A stretch of 64,000 nt of DNA from an uncultured Bacteroidia bacterium (GTDB lineage: Bacteria; Bacteroidota; Bacteroidia; Bacteroidales; CAJPTX01): assembly GCA_947252645.1 (NCBI GenBank), contig CAMXWF010000002.1, positions 8,632-72,631 of the forward strand, read 5' to 3'. The notes below the pieces were generated by a model that saw nothing but the letters and a program-made list of their open reading frames with translations, did not search any database and was not told the DNA's origin. Of the stretch, positions 60,370-64,000 are shown in pieces. Position numbers and translations under genes: made by a program. The number at the start of each line of letters is the position of its first letter. Position 1 is the stretch's first letter.

Positions 60370-61245
60370 TTAGGCCTGAGGAAGCACCATGAGTACCCCG
60401 CCGACAGCTAGCAGTACGCGTAGGCAGCGGATGAGACGAGCTCGCTTGGCCACACTGGCTTCGCTTGCCTCGGCCATAGATCGCAGGAAAGGTAGGCGGA
60501 CTTCCAGCGTGCGCCCTATGGCTACAGCAAGCGTCAGCAGGAGCGCAAACAGCAGATTGTAGGGGCGAATGAAGTTCCCCACCGAGAAGAAGAGTACCAC
60601 GGAGAGGCCAGCCATGATGAGGAGCTCCAGCAGCCAGTCCACAACCTTGTAGCGGTTTAGAGCCAGCCTCTTGGCGTACGCCTCTATCTGAGTAGCTTCC
60701 TTCGCCCTGTACTGCGCCAGTGCCTCACCCTGAAGCGTGGAGAGATTTTTGCTCAGGCCATGCGTACACACATGCATCACCACCACGGAGATTGCAAAGA
60801 GCGCAGGGCCAGTCAAGATAATCCACAGCTCCTCCCCCTGTGTGAACCCGTAGATGGGAGTGTAGAGCGCAGGTACGAGTGCAAACGGCATGAAGCATAG
60901 AATGCCCAGGTTGAGCGCCGACAGCTGCCAAGGGGCATAAAGCGTGCGGTTATCGGCATTGTAGTAGGGCGTAGGCATCATGTTGAGCATATTGCTCAGC
61001 GGAGTATAGCGGCATGCAAATAGTAGGATGAATATAAGTAGTCCCACTATCGACATCACGGGAAGCCCCCATACGTAGGCAACGTGGGTGGCTAGGGGAA
61101 GTTTTGTGCCTGCCAACTCCCAGATGATGAAAATCGCCAAGTGCGGCACTAGCAGGGCCACTGCCAGTGCCAACGAGAATACCGAGATAGTGTGGTAGCC
61201 GTATTTACCGTAGAGCCAGTGATTGAATGACATGATGACCTCCAA
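60370..61245 (-). CDS. Uncharacterised polytopic membrane protein (paralogue B)
   Basis: 291-aa ORF (alternative start MSFNHW at 61233). It has at least 6 hydrophobic segments split by an amphipathic linker (QGEALAQYRAKEATQIEAYAKRLALNRYKVVDW). It shares motifs with the 61247-62107 product. I recognise no family. Confidence 0.7.
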   Translation of the reverse strand: MEVIMSFNHWLYGKYGYHTISVFSLALAVALLVPHLAIFIIWELAGTKLPLATHVAYVWGLPVMSIVGLLIFILLFACRYTPLSNMLNMMPTPYYNADNRTLYAPWQLSALNLGILCFMPFALVPALYTPIYGFTQGEELWIILTGPALFAISVVVMHVCTHGLSKNLSTLQGEALAQYRAKEATQIEAYAKRLALNRYKVVDWLLELLIMAGLSVVLFFSVGNFIRPYNLLFALLLTLAVAIGRTLEVRLPFLRSMAEASEASVAKRARLIRCLRVLLAVGGVLMVLPQA

Positions 61246-61246
61246 A

Positions 61247-62107
61247 TCATAGTGTGGTTAGCGAGCAGATGTAGAGGGCCAAGAGGGCAAACAGTAGGCG
61301 CATGGCCTTCACGGCTCGAGCCCACTTGATGGCGTACTGCTGGTCGTTGGCGCATTTGCTGCCCACAATCTGCGGCAGGTAATACTCCACGGTGCGTCCG
61401 CCGGCTACCGTGACGATGCAGGCGTAGAGGTCGATGACCTTGTTGAGTCCTACGGAGGTGTTGAACATGGCGACCAGGGCAGCCGTCAGCACCACGTGGA
61501 TGGCCCCCTCTAGGAACCAGTCGAGTATCCCGTAGCGGTAGCGGAGAATGCGAGATTCTTCTTTTTCCATCTTCGCCAACGCGCCAGCCCTATAGGAATC
61601 ACCCTCGGGACTGACCAGTACGCGGTCGAGATGGGAGGCCTGTCGGTAGTTCACTGCAATCAGTGCTACCGTGACTACGCAAGCAAACAGGGCACTTAGC
61701 CAAGTCCATTGGCTGGCATGCGCCAATGCGCCATGGTATACGCACGCCACCAGCGCCAGTGGCGTGAACGCCAAGGCAAACCCGTAGAGCACGGCTCGCA
61801 ACGCCGGGCGGTAGAGGGGAAAATTCTCTGCCTTGTAGAAGCTCAGCGGGAAAACGTGTACCCGTGTCGCTTGCGGCCACCCGTCGAAGAGCCGGGGCAT
61901 GGCTAGGAAAAACAGCCACACCACCAACATGATGGCGCCGGGCACCCATAGGCCAGGTGAAGCCAACAGATCGGTGAGTTGTCCGCCGATGAGCCAATAG
62001 AGCAAGAGAAGCAGGTGCGGCACGGCCACGCAGACAAGCATAGTTCGCATCGAGGCGGCCGCCAGGCGAAATTGTGTCGGGGAGTAGGCAACTATTGTAG
62101 CACCCAT
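61247..62107 (-). CDS. Uncharacterised polytopic membrane protein (paralogue A)
   Basis: 286-aa ORF with at least 6 hydrophobic segments. It shares the motifs VPHL..., Y(K/N)A(E/D)N..LY.P, RY..(L/V)DW(F/L)LE and GRT(V/L)E..LP with the downstream gene. Its stop is 1 nt from the next start. Confidence 0.7.
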   Translation of the reverse strand: MGATIVAYSPTQFRLAAASMRTMLVCVAVPHLLLLLYWLIGGQLTDLLASPGLWVPGAIMLVVWLFFLAMPRLFDGWPQATRVHVFPLSFYKAENFPLYRPALRAVLYGFALAFTPLALVACVYHGALAHASQWTWLSALFACVVTVALIAVNYRQASHLDRVLVSPEGDSYRAGALAKMEKEESRILRYRYGILDWFLEGAIHVVLTAALVAMFNTSVGLNKVIDLYACIVTVAGGRTVEYYLPQIVGSKCANDQQYAIKWARAVKAMRLLFALLALYICSLTTL

Positions 62108-62119
62108 AGTTTTATCCTG

Positions 62120-63004
62120 TTAGAGGGCCATGTTAGTCAGATAGGCCTCAATGACTGCGCGAAGTTCCTGAGCTTGTTCTGGCGTGAGCTTACCCCCATG
62201 CGCCTCTACTACGTACTTCTCTGCTGCTTTGTAAATTCTTTGAGACATTGCTTCAAGAACTGTCTGACCAAACTCTGCGGAATCGATTTGGGAAAGCACC
62301 ACCATGGTGTCTGCGTTGAGATTCCCTATTTCTGCTTTTACACTTTGCCCCGCTGCTTCTACGCTCACTAAGACCACGCAATGGACAAACAGCGCAGCTT
62401 CTGCTACTAGTACCACAAATGCGACTACAGGTGCAATTGCAAAAAATGCTCCGCTACGGTATACCCCAAGCGTGGTCTGCTGCCCGTTGATACCAAGCTG
62501 ATTGGCGATTTGCTCCAGAATAGAATTTAGCTCTGTAGAGGCCTCAGCATCAGTTTCTATTGCTTCCCTGTTGGACAATATGCACTCTACAACCGCTTGG
62601 TTATCTCCATTTTTAATGGCCATGCGGAGCTGTCGGTCTGCTAGTAGAGACACAAGCCTTATAACGAAGGGATCTAGGCGTTCGCTGGAATTGCTTGGCA
62701 ATGACGTTTGCCATGTGAGAATCTGCTCGGCTGCTTCCCGAGATTCTTTTGCTTGTTCCAGCACCGCCCTTAAGCGATTCCAGTACAGCCTATCTTGATC
62801 GCTTAAACCAACGGCGGATCCATTATTTTGCGATGATGACTTAGCCAGCGCATTCAGTCGTTTTTTCAGCATCAATGCGTGCTGTTCATCTTCCGTCATA
62901 TCGTATCTTGCGCATGATTCTAAGAATATGACAATCGCAGTCAAAAACGCCAACGCCTTGAACAAGGCCTTCTTCATTGCAAAGAGTGAATCTTTCTGTT
63001 TCAT
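62120..63004 (-). CDS. Uncharacterised helical lipoprotein-like protein with an internal hydrophobic hairpin
   Basis: 294-aa ORF with a signal and lipobox-like sequence (LAFLTAIVIFLESC). Its regions are rich in helix-forming residues. It has a single ~35-aa hydrophobic segment (GAFFAIAPVVAFVVLVAEAALFVHCVVLVSVEAAG). The gene is AT-rich. I recognise no family. Confidence 0.65.
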   Translation of the reverse strand: MKQKDSLFAMKKALFKALAFLTAIVIFLESCARYDMTEDEQHALMLKKRLNALAKSSSQNNGSAVGLSDQDRLYWNRLRAVLEQAKESREAAEQILTWQTSLPSNSSERLDPFVIRLVSLLADRQLRMAIKNGDNQAVVECILSNREAIETDAEASTELNSILEQIANQLGINGQQTTLGVYRSGAFFAIAPVVAFVVLVAEAALFVHCVVLVSVEAAGQSVKAEIGNLNADTMVVLSQIDSAEFGQTVLEAMSQRIYKAAEKYVVEAHGGKLTPEQAQELRAVIEAYLTNMAL

Positions 63005-63025
63005 GGTGTTATGTAGTTAAGGATT

Positions 63026-64000
63026 TCAATTCGTAAGCTTCCCAGCTAAAGCGTCACCAAGATCGAGCCTACTAAAGACCTCAGCCCGATGAGCCTTGTA
63101 TGCCGAAGACACTCTTTCCAACATCGGGCGTGAGAACAGAATTCGGCAGACAGCGCAACTGTGTATGCCGAATGCATTCTTACTCCAGGCCATGCCTTCT
63201 GGTACGCCTTTTATACAACAGGACTGGTAGACTGAGTGTGCCCCTTTTACTGATATCCAAAGGAGGAGAAAGTCGTCTAGGAACGATCTATATGCGCTCA
63301 TCAGTTGCTCGCATGTGGGATACAGCGGCAGGGGGCGTTGTAGATAACTATTCCTTCTAACAGTCAAACCACAGCAGGCGTACAACTCTCCATGGGGTGA
63401 GAGCGTGATGGTGGTAAGGAGAGAGTCGCACGCCCTCATACTATCGGGGATAGGAAGCCTATTGGAAGCTTCTGCGTTTTTACTCCTCTCGGGGTTAGAC
63501 GTTGGCATCCAAATTCCGGCAATCACTCTAAAGTGGTCTGGACTGTGTGAGGTGCTTAGATTCGCTATTCGGGGGTCAGACATGAACTGGTCGTAATATG
63601 CATTGTCCTGCCTGTGCTGCTCAACATTGACAATGCACGTTACACCTAGCTCACAGGCGGCCATACTGCCATAAATAACATTGTCCATTGGAACCCAAGC
63701 TGAGTGTTCGTCCCCAGTACTAAAATTCACCTCGGAGAGGCCTAGCCTTTTGAGATGCTTCAGCATGCGAAATGCTTTGCCATAGCTTGTTGCCCAGTAG
63801 GCATTTGTGACCACCCGTACTTAGGAGGCCTCTTTTAGCCGCATAGGCTACAATCAGGCGAAGTTTAGCTCCAAGCAGAAAGCACTCTCCCCCAGTAATA
63901 ACCAACAGTCTCAGTGACTCCCCAAAGCAGGTCAATGCTGTATCGATGTAATGCTTCATGCGGCGTAGCGACATCAGAGGACTCTTTGCTATTGGGGAGC
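63026..64000 (-). pseudogene. Radical SAM / SPASM-like enzyme gene, 5'-truncated by the window edge and interrupted by a +1 frame change near 63815-63825
   Basis: The upstream frame is open to the window edge: ...SPIAKSPLMSLRRMKHYIDTALTCFGESLRLLVITGGECFLLGAKLRLIVAYAAKRGLLSTG. The reading then continues in another frame as VVTNAYWATSYGKAFRMLKHLKRLGLSEVNFSTGDEH... The tail is Cys-rich (LYACCG, PTC, SCC, HSCAVC). The Cx3Cx2C motif itself would lie outside the window. The break could be a real frameshift or a sequencing error in the ggg run. Confidence 0.6.

Follow-up and report, generated by a model that had tools for sequence, protein, structure and literature searches.

The window analyzed here is a 64,000-nucleotide (nt) stretch of contig CAMXWF010000002.1 from an uncultured Bacteroidia bacterium, a gut member of the Bacteroidales. 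At its right edge it carries a minus-strand cassette encoding a radical S-adenosylmethionine (SAM) enzyme, a 294-amino-acid (aa) protein with a lipoprotein-type signal, and two polytopic membrane proteins, here called paralogues A and B. We propose, at a probability of roughly 0.45, that this cassette would specify a toxin resembling RiPPs (peptides made on ribosomes and modified after translation), matured by an epimerase of the EpeE/YydG type, together with self-protection; we infer the epimerization, the toxicity, and the immunity from homology, core composition, and gene position. The enzyme gene is frameshifted in this strain, and an intact allele is found on other contigs with the same gene context. 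The parts of the cassette are as follows.

63823-64000, minus strand: radical-SAM gene, N-terminal part, running past the window edge (frame translation; extension from contigs L001 and L003)
63821-63822, minus strand: frameshift site with one extra A, CCTAAGTA versus CCTAGTA in the intact allele L003 (DNA alignment of the window, L001, and L003)
63026-63820, minus strand: radical-SAM gene, C-terminal part, including the predicted auxiliary-cluster (EpeE-like extended twitch) region (motif mapping and profile alignment)
63794-63814, minus strand: VVTNAYW (motif mapping)
63704-63727, minus strand: NFSTGDEH (motif mapping)
63425-63436, minus strand: RAC (motif mapping)
63368-63379, minus strand: ACCG (motif mapping)
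63146-63163, minus strand: HSCAVC (motif mapping)
62120-63004, minus strand: 294-aa secreted (lipoprotein-type) protein, putative substrate or precursor (linkage to the radical-SAM gene, family alignment, core composition)
62912-62923, minus strand: lipobox LESC (family alignment)
62348-62455, minus strand: Val/Ala-rich hydrophobic core of 36 aa, residues 184-219 (composition analysis)
61247-62107, minus strand: paralogue A, 286-aa polytopic membrane protein with about 6 to 7 hydrophobic helices, putative immunity or accessory protein (position, homology)
60370-61245, minus strand: paralogue B, 291 aa from TTG 61245 or 287 aa from ATG 61233 (tandem duplicate of paralogue A)

An EpeE-like radical-SAM enzyme

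The four open reading frames (ORFs) are co-directional in the ORF listing of the window (60370-61245, 61247-62107, 62120-63004, and 63026 onward), and the measured gaps of 21, 12, and 1 nt agree with those reported in the original prediction; the last gap is 13 nt if paralogue B begins at ATG 61233, the start picked by gene callers on the contigs. On contigs L003 and L004, which carry the intact allele, the order reads tsaD / radical-SAM / 294 / 286 / 287 / coaD, and the neighbors of the cassette are the housekeeping genes tsaD, murF-like, and coaD. The missing beginning of the enzyme was read from L003 and from L001, a 95-kb metagenome contig that contains the same locus beyond position 64000 and was retrieved by an exact-sequence query with the 294-aa protein. 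At about 40-77 nt past 64000 come the start codon and the CTAACSECC cluster motif, and the N terminus reads MRPPNTLALITSFRCTAACSECCFSC in both contigs. The Cx3Cx2C motif that the original prediction wanted to see upstream is therefore present just outside the window (CTAACSEC in L001 and L003). The GGECF SAM-binding block is located at 63879-63896.

The closest relative of the enzyme is EpeE/YydG, in keeping with the earlier assignment of this gene to a peptide-modifying radical-SAM enzyme with an auxiliary-cluster domain. A 23-member family profile matches the YydG/EpeE structures 8AI1-8AI6 with an E value of 6e-26 over residues 9-330 of 348, and it is EpeE, rather than the PoyD-type epimerases (single cluster, C-terminal RiPP recognition element), to which the enzyme aligns from end to end. 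For three family members, including the intact allele P0001, the top NCBIfam family is TIGR04078 (YydG radical-SAM peptide epimerase), with scores of 61.7 bits for P0001, 89.1 for L017, and 94.7 for L049 against an equivalog cut-off of 300; on these scores the enzyme is outside the YydG equivalog family. PoyD-type and EpeE epimerases are distinct lineages, and the residues epimerized by EpeE are a Val and an Ile (PMC8326336).

All 23 aligned members share CxxxCxxCCxxC, GGECF, VVTNxYWA, C216, ACCG (C234/C235), and HxCxxC (C307/C310) as invariant features; among them, the radical-SAM cluster motif CX3CX2C (C15, C19, C22; 23/23) lies outside the window. Only five conserved Cys residues are found outside the N-terminal cluster region. 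Four of these (C216, C234, C307, and C310) align with YydG Cys residues outside CX3CX2C in the profile alignment to 8AI1 and would probably bind a second cluster. The fifth, C235 of P0001, is the second Cys of ACCG; it aligns with chain residue C248, that is, native Cys223, and is invariant in 23/23. The chain-to-native offset of 25 is confirmed by the match of chain D235 and C248 to the published Asp210 and Cys223. In EpeE, Cys223 is the H-atom donor that completes epimerization, and the second cluster is located in an extended twitch ("T-SPASM") domain (PMC13012085). The conserved catalytic Cys set thus marks the enzyme as EpeE-like and points to epimerization. The Cys-rich C terminus, described earlier as SPASM/twitch-like, stands as a probable auxiliary-cluster domain in which RAC, ACCG, and HxCxxC are kept across the family, while PTC and SCC are not; Pfam returned nothing at E <= 1 for the reconstituted protein, and thus no SPASM domain PF13186, and by this measure the enzyme is no canonical SPASM protein.

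A 294-aa protein family linked to the enzyme

The 294-aa protein consists of a signal peptide with a lipobox, a helical N-domain, the Val/Ala core, and a helical C-domain. In its signal peptide, MKKALFKALAFLTAIVIFLESC, Cys31 occupies the alignment column that holds the lipobox Cys in most homologues from Bacteroidales (mostly L-x-[GAS]-C), although the Glu at lipobox position -2 is atypical; on the lipobox it is predicted to be a lipoprotein. The lipoprotein-type signal (LESC), helical character, and single hydrophobic segment (residues 184-219) that the original prediction described are all recovered, the all-helical prediction being of low confidence (AlphaFold2 predicted local distance difference test [pLDDT] score of 40, shallow alignment). 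The protein has no family match in Pfam, NCBIfam, PADLOC, or the PDB, and, as originally stated, the three downstream proteins could not be assigned to a named family, without meaningful matches in Pfam, NCBIfam, or PADLOC.

A large protein database returned only the query itself for the 294-aa sequence and five proteins for a 22-member profile. The family is too divergent for word-indexed search and was built by jackhmmer and hidden Markov models (HMMs) on the ORFs of fetched loci. A one-genome-per-species scan gave 167 relatives of the radical-SAM enzyme; 80 of their loci were analyzed. In iterative HMM searches on the ORFs of these loci, a homologue of the 294-aa protein (hereafter, the partner) adjoins the enzyme in about 27 loci, from Bacteroidales to an archaeal metagenome-assembled genome (MAG), so that the two genes do co-occur outside this genome, as the original prediction had anticipated. 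In about 23 loci both genes are intact and adjacent, with the partner at -37 to +70 nt from the enzyme gene; in L038 the partner lies upstream of it. The hosts are Bacteroidales (Bacteroides ovatus, Phocaeicola faecicola, Alistipes, Prevotella, Tannerella, and Dysgonamonadaceae), Gammaproteobacteria (MAGs and Intestinirhabdus alba), Bacillota (Bacillus manliponensis and Lacticaseibacillus manihotivorans), a Planctomycetaceae MAG, and a Pacearchaeota MAG, the one archaeal case.

The family alignment runs from an export signal through a conserved helical domain (P..AK.F..NP..Y...G ... L.AL.D.D...A...D...F..C..KG) and a variable linker to a 30- to 50-aa hydrophobic core and a C-terminal helical domain. 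The export route differs between groups: Bacteroidales partners have a lipobox Cys, proteobacterial partners have MKRRKFL-type (RRxFL) Tat signals with a borderline TIGR01409 match, and Bacillota partners lack a signal and have a fused ATP-binding cassette (ABC) exporter alongside, an arrangement also seen in the divergent Enterococcus termitis locus L015. Since the partner ends up outside the cytoplasm and is strictly linked to a cytoplasmic radical-SAM enzyme, the simplest reason for the linkage would be that it is the substrate of the enzyme before export. The original prediction had named either the 294-aa protein or a small precursor as the substrate, and the 294-aa protein appears the best candidate, given its co-occurrence with the enzyme and the absence of any conserved short precursor ORF in the 900 nt upstream of the enzyme gene in 27 partner-type loci.

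The opposite assignment, in which the 294-aa protein would be an accessory (receptor, chaperone, or anchor) and the true substrate a missed short peptide comparable to the 49-aa EpeX upstream of EpeE, has precedent, as EpeE acts on a short peptide encoded directly upstream (PMC7026026, PMC8326336), and the Paenibacillus locus L045 has only a 70-aa hydrophobic ORF upstream, with no partner. We give it little credence: besides the missing short ORF, the partner is extracytoplasmic by its signals and could not assist a cytoplasmic enzyme after export, and in the sister loci described below it is the long protein itself that ends in a Val/Ala core.

The predicted fold raises another option, namely that the 294-aa protein is an alpha-pore-forming toxin of the ClyA/MakA type, active unmodified and only loosely coupled to the enzyme. 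An all-helical protein of about 300 aa with a central 36-aa Ala/Val/Gly-rich hairpin would suit such a toxin, and the L010 member matches the MakA model over the head region (E 6e-6). That match, however, amounts to 25 bits against a 320-bit cut-off, concerns 1 of 22 members, and covers a compositionally biased stretch, and the family profile finds no ClyA-family PDB entry. With the enzyme gene adjacent in essentially all loci and sister precursors that lack the C-terminal bundle, we consider this option very unlikely. Other weak matches among the 22 partners, all below cut-off, are to IniB_NTERM in five (best E 0.007) and to the NHLP clan in one (E 7e-4); a few partners and sister precursors also match the SdpC model weakly (E 7e-5 to 0.06) in compositionally biased segments, below threshold.

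Val/Ala-rich cores and sister loci

The most hydrophobic 36 aa of the partners contain 24% Val and 23% Ala (together 47%) and 7% Leu, whereas control transmembrane (TM) segments of neighboring membrane proteins contain 12% Val and 8% Ala (together 20%), 17% Leu, and 16% Ile. The unusually Val/Ala-rich segment noticed in the original prediction is therefore a trait of the whole family. Val, Ala, Ile, and Gly make up nearly all of the partner cores; aromatic and charged residues are scarce, and the Cys content is only 0.7%, which rules out sactionine-type thioethers.

Radical-SAM loci without the 294-aa partner encode, directly upstream of the enzyme, a protein of 160-240 aa that ends in a core of the same composition (Val 27%, Ala 27%, Asn 6%). 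Their hosts include Izhakiella capsodis, Ferruginibacter, Saccharopolyspora rosea, Pyrinomonadaceae, and several Verrucomicrobiota. These cores include NANINITVNVNLVANVNAAVV, ...NANINITVNVNLVANVNAAVVNKVALLLIVFLFIVVIPP, and ...VNTNVDVNAEAVANAVAVTNVAGVTDVAVAVEVFVAVAAFVF, which we take to resemble the core of the polytheonamide precursor. Sister precursors were located at the following positions, and also in L028, L030, and L042.

L029, 6278-6772: sister precursor
L035, 6423-6980: sister precursor
L041, 6338-6952: sister precursor
L049, 6392-6949: sister precursor
L050, 6482-6970: sister precursor
L025, 6339-6947: sister precursor

The core is C-terminal in L029, L035, L041, L049, and L050, unlike in the 294-aa family (184-219 of 294), and the sister precursors lack the C-terminal bundle. 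Because the long protein of the sister loci itself ends in the core, it is best read as the precursor, and the radical-SAM family would be a RiPP-type maturase acting on the long protein encoded next to it. Further tailoring genes accompany some loci. Downstream in the sister loci are HemK/PrmC-like methyltransferases with an NPPLLP motif, comparable to the Asn N-methyltransferase of polytheonamide clusters, and L041 has a bPH_5 protein. In some partner-type loci there is also a TIGR03975 protein (RiPP maturation radical SAM C-methyltransferase), which reaches the cut-off in L033 (404 bits) and stays below it in L019 (168 bits).

Genes for B12-binding radical-SAM proteins were noted beside the enzyme-partner pair in L019 (9005-10870), L033 (8603-10500), and L065 (9449-10011); by eye, the L065 ORFs resemble the N terminus of the L019 enzyme, and the L033 and L065 copies appear split. 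In two Eremiobacterota MAGs (L052, 5988-6989; L054, 6390-6983), the upstream protein has tandem FDEDATGTRxxGP repeats and no hydrophobic core; it may be a multicore precursor of a different product class.

Core composition also bears on the reaction. Within one radical-SAM fold the reaction often varies between families, and the enzyme could perform a different chemistry on the 294-aa core, for instance cross-linking it through C-C or C-O bonds or modifying beta or gamma positions; the CC pair would then do no more than ligate a cluster. Its distance from EpeE (61.7 versus 300 bits), the loss of the EpeE Asp210, and the additional invariant residues C23, C26, and C65 would fit such a switch. 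Conversely, the Cys aligned with the EpeE hydrogen donor is invariant in 23/23, the cores, with 0.7% Cys and hardly anything besides Val, Ala, Ile, and Gly, offer little to cross-link, and Val and Ile are the residues that EpeE epimerizes (PMC8326336). We regard a different chemistry as unlikely and retain epimerization as the predicted reaction.

The gene slot after the partner

Paralogues A and B share 28% identity over 261 aa (E 3e-15), in line with their original description as tandem paralogues. An exhaustive HMM search found five matches to the family in 1.84 billion representative proteins, and a metagenome scan with paralogue A alone gave one human-gut contig and no conspecific locus lacking the enzyme-precursor island. 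The conservation of the four-gene order across Bacteroidota, proposed earlier as a check, is seen in part: the order with the tandem pair recurs in one lineage, L005-L009, in which L009 is an oral Bacteroidia MAG and L005 encodes an enzyme 50% identical and a partner 35% identical (E 1e-23) to those of the window, and the paralogues, with their five family matches, are not general.

In other Bacteroidales loci, the slot after the partner is filled by bPH_5 proteins with 2 TM helices (one or two of them, E 1e-14 to 1e-16), by bPH_4, by DUF1648, or by an Rce1-like CPBP protein, DUF1648 (SdpI-type) being found in L010 and L065. SunI, SdpI, and CPBP/Abi proteins confer immunity to bacteriocins. 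By analogy, the swapping of such families behind a conserved enzyme-precursor pair looks like the usual signature of immunity genes, and the position of the paralogues suggests that they may have this role. Membrane bPH proteins are required for enterocin DD14 export and self-protection (PMC8657885). Homology between the paralogues and bPH_5 was rejected, as they share no domain and the paralogues match no family, which leaves them positional analogues only. The original suggestion that the paralogues are dedicated export components does not hold up well, since the signals of the precursor itself (lipobox or Tat) or a neighboring ABC exporter would explain export better.

A frameshifted enzyme allele

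Every motif string quoted in the original prediction was found in the window, with the radical-SAM blocks in two reading frames. One frame carries SPIAKSPLMSL...LLVITGGECFLL...AAKRGL, and the other frame carries VRVVTNAYW...NFSTGDEH...ACCG...HSCAVC; LLVITGGECFLL and VVTNAYW, joined earlier as one ORF, are thus separated by the extra A at 63821/63822. The window and L001 share this A, and L003 lacks it. The intact allele P0001, obtained by homology search, is 349 aa long and 99% identical, and it occurs on other contigs of the same context. A truncated 246-aa product, P0070, is recorded on five contigs, and products of 349, 351, and 315 aa, all compatible with an unbroken gene, on at least 10.

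As the extra A does not fall in a long homopolymer and is seen again in independent assemblies, it is probably no sequencing error, and the frameshift is probably a genuine strain-level allele. Programmed frameshifting was rejected, a slippery sequence being absent and the intact allele differing by one base. Gene callers report a 315-aa product without the cluster motif on at least 12 contigs (L089, 3001-3948; P0069). We considered it as a second disrupted allele and rejected it, the DNA being identical to the intact allele; it is a start-calling artefact, and protein lengths in the databases therefore undercount intact copies.

With its enzyme gene frameshifted, the cassette of this strain probably makes no modified product, while the precursor and paralogue genes are still intact. 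Of the original proposal of a radical-SAM-dependent maturation and export or immunity module, the linkage of the enzyme to a candidate substrate is supported; the paralogues do not belong to the system in general, and the enzyme gene is broken here. Broken enzyme genes were also noted in L040 (6950-7995), L011 (1837-3730), and L065 (6953-7808), the partner of L011 being fragmented as well. This suggests that the genes that would make the toxin decay recurrently.

Composition, acquisition, and distribution

The GC content of 62120-64000 is 0.485 compared to 0.573 for the window, in the bottom 2% among 1880-nt windows, in agreement with the original remark that the 62.1-64.0 kb part is AT-richer than most of the window. 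The description of the whole as an AT-rich four-gene module holds for two genes. GC content at third codon positions (GC3) is 0.50-0.53 in the enzyme gene and 0.46 in the 294-aa gene; by contrast, it is 0.73 in paralogue A and 0.69 in paralogue B, at the level of the genome and of the flanking genes (0.72-0.78). The foreign composition is thus limited to the enzyme and 294-aa genes, and the horizontal acquisition suggested earlier is supported by GC3 for this pair. It would have been acquired recently, in front of older paralogue genes of genome-like composition.

In L003 the low-GC island extends from about 5650 to 7960 (2.3 kb) and ends at paralogue A. Upstream of the enzyme gene, outside the window, the 5'-terminal 100 nt or so of paralogue A occur a second time, with 87-93% identity and a 1-nt indel.

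L003, 5438-5540 versus 7985-8090: paralogue A 5' repeat, about 100-200 nt before the island
L001, 8361-8461 versus 10917-11016: paralogue A 5' repeat, about 100-200 nt before the island

A truncated 5' copy flanking the insert would fit single-crossover (Campbell-type) integration or a cassette swap, which suggests that the island was inserted at a preexisting paralogue locus. The sequence TATCTTTG is seen at L003 5969-5976, inside the island and 25 nt upstream of the enzyme ATG (6001); it matches the Bacteroidetes -7 promoter element TAnnTTTG, and the island may bring its own promoter.

In the one-genome-per-species scan, relatives of the enzyme are sporadic across phyla, with very few species per genus. 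A single relative was found in 2.9 million viral contigs, and PADLOC gave a weak generic radical-SAM match to pVip (E 1e-6, 26 bits) and nothing for the other three proteins; on these near-null results an anti-phage defense system was rejected.

The patchy spread across phyla, the foreign composition of the enzyme-precursor pair, and the repeated decay of the enzyme gene support a toxin cassette. They also count against a peaceful function, in which the 294-aa protein would be a modified envelope lipoprotein for the producer's own use (membrane-anchoring or stress-related) and the paralogues its membrane partners or transporters. A conserved C-terminal domain with a lipid anchor does recall a resident envelope protein, the surroundings (tsaD, murF-like, coaD) are housekeeping genes, and toxicity is a prediction. 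Against these stand, in addition, the third slot that swaps among families of bacteriocin loci (PMC8657885), the dedicated ABC exporters in Bacillota, and the RiPP C-methyltransferases recruited in some loci, and we find an own-use lipoprotein quite improbable.

Proposed mechanism

For the intact cassette, a possible sequence of events can be outlined. In the enzyme, CxxxCxxC would hold the [4Fe-4S] cluster that binds SAM, and the four further conserved Cys residues would probably hold a second one. In the cytoplasm, the enzyme would abstract C-alpha hydrogens in the 36-aa Val/Ala-rich core of the 294-aa protein, and the ACCG Cys would return a hydrogen to the opposite face, yielding D-residues. 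The modified protein would then be exported via its own lipoprotein signal, or in relatives via Tat or a neighboring ABC exporter, and the hydrophobic core, either released by proteolysis or within the intact protein, would act on competitor membranes. The paralogous membrane proteins would protect the producer or help handle the product.

Several points weigh against an epimerase-dependent toxin cassette. At 61.7 bits, the enzyme falls well short of the 300-bit YydG equivalog cut-off; the position of the EpeE Asp210 is Thr in P0001 and Thr, Asn, or Ser in the family, in a loop region where the alignment is uncertain; and the family has the extra invariant Cys residues C23, C26, and C65. The core is internal and followed by a conserved C-terminal domain of 75-90 aa, which is unusual for a RiPP precursor, and a Sec/lipoprotein signal would leave little time for cytoplasmic modification. 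No protease gene, and no ABC transporter gene, was found in the window by ORF listing and Pfam scan. Foldseek searches against the PDB gave only E >= 0.9 for both models (the 294-aa protein, pLDDT 40, best E value 1.1; paralogue A, pLDDT 55, shallow alignment). The partner N-domain and the sister leaders align marginally (hhalign probability 66%, 61 columns), which we did not use as evidence. The paralogues match no immunity family in Pfam, NCBIfam, or PADLOC, and their role is deduced from position. The frameshifted window copy may do nothing, and epimerization, toxicity, and immunity are all predicted from sequence.

The wider class may nonetheless share one strategy. Enzymes of this lineage were found in human-associated Bacteroidales (Bacteroides ovatus, Phocaeicola faecicola, Alistipes, Prevotella), Verrucomicrobiota, Acidobacteriota, Bacillota, and Gammaproteobacteria. 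We tentatively suggest, at somewhat short of even odds, that EpeE-lineage enzymes would install D-residues in the Val/Ala(/Asn) cores of exported precursors of 160-340 aa, giving polytheonamide-analogous toxins, and that these would be accompanied by interchangeable immunity genes of the bPH, SdpI-like, CPBP, or orphan paralogue kind.

Other features of the window

The interval between paralogue B and coaD contains an inverted repeat, and an Rfam scan of the locus gave zero matches.

60170-60188 and 60213-60231, no strand assigned: perfect 19-nt inverted repeat with a 24-nt loop (repeat search in L001, mapped to the window)

This inverted repeat (60170-60231) could be a terminator at the transcription unit's 3' end or a regulatory hairpin. 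Elsewhere, two large BspA-type leucine-rich repeat / Listeria-Bacteroides-repeat proteins (526-2736 and 3002-5365, plus strand) have type IX secretion C-terminal sorting domains, which confirms that the host is a member of the Bacteroidota with this secretion system. A second low-GC stretch (5300-7100, GC 0.45-0.50), with a DUF4876 protein (6028-7104, minus strand) and unassigned ORFs, may be another acquired segment.

Comparison with known systems

Ribosomal peptides with D-amino acids are rare. To our knowledge, the characterized radical-SAM epimerase lineages are only two: the PoyD type of proteusins and EpeE of the short Bacillota epipeptides. Full-text literature searches, of incomplete coverage, turned up no account of EpeE-lineage enzymes associated with long Val/Ala-rich precursors or Bacteroidota lipoproteins. 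Should our interpretation be true, the EpeE lineage would be much broader and would act on protein-sized, signal-bearing precursors, and the polytheonamide solution, in which a Val/Ala/Asn core becomes membrane active through stereo-inversion, would have been reached independently. Human gut and oral Bacteroidales, in which interbacterial toxins shape strain coexistence, would moreover gain a new antagonism factor and the immunity genes that match it. The comparative set offers testable enzyme-substrate pairs, intact alleles included, and its cultured hosts comprise Bacteroides ovatus, Phocaeicola faecicola, Bacillus manliponensis, Enterococcus termitis, and Izhakiella capsodis.

The architecture recalls SdpC/SdpI of Bacillus subtilis, which likewise combines a signal-bearing pro-protein with a polytopic membrane immunity protein, and DUF1648 occupies the third slot in L010 and L065. 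SdpC is a pro-protein of roughly 200 aa that releases an internal hydrophobic peptide. SDP maturation, however, proceeds without a radical-SAM enzyme, and the cassette-side matches to SdpC are far below cut-off and do not establish homology. Loci with bPH proteins (DdE/DdF of enterocin DD14; Pfam bPH_8, "SunI-like") are similar in that, in related loci, the gene behind the partner encodes a two-TM bPH_5 or bPH_4 protein. The paralogues differ in having 6 to 7 TM helices, no PH domain, and no family, so that the analogy is positional only.

Proteusin clusters such as that of polytheonamide, with the PoyA precursor, the PoyD epimerase, the PoyE N-methyltransferase, and the PoyB/C B12-dependent radical-SAM C-methyltransferases, share with the present system long structured leaders, a Val/Ala/Gly-rich hydrophobic core (with Asn in the sister loci), and a radical-SAM epimerase-type enzyme. 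Some related loci also have a HemK-like, SAM-dependent N-methyltransferase-like gene or a TIGR03975 C-methyltransferase, and action on membranes would be expected in both cases. By contrast, an NHLP/Nif11 leader is not demonstrated here, the only matches being weak ones to IniB_NTERM and the NHLP clan; the core of the 294-aa protein is internal and the protein has an export signal, and the window cassette lacks methyltransferases.

The epipeptide system epeXEPAB (yydFGHIJ) of Bacillus subtilis is distinguished from the cassette by phylum, by the order of the enzyme and precursor genes, and by its self-protection genes. EpeX has 49 aa and two modified residues, whereas the candidate here has 294 aa, a signal, and an internal 36-aa core; the EpeP protease and the EpeAB ABC transporter have no counterpart in the cassette, ABC exporters among its relatives being confined to Bacillota; and the cassette enzyme is far below the family cut-off and does not keep Asp210. 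Even so, EpeE/YydG is its closest relative over nearly the full length (E 6e-26), and the two share the CxxxCxxCC motif, the GGE block, the aligned auxiliary Cys residues, and the CC pair with the H-donor Cys223. Common to both, as we would predict for the cassette, are a membrane-active product encoded beside the enzyme and hydrophobic beta-branched target residues.

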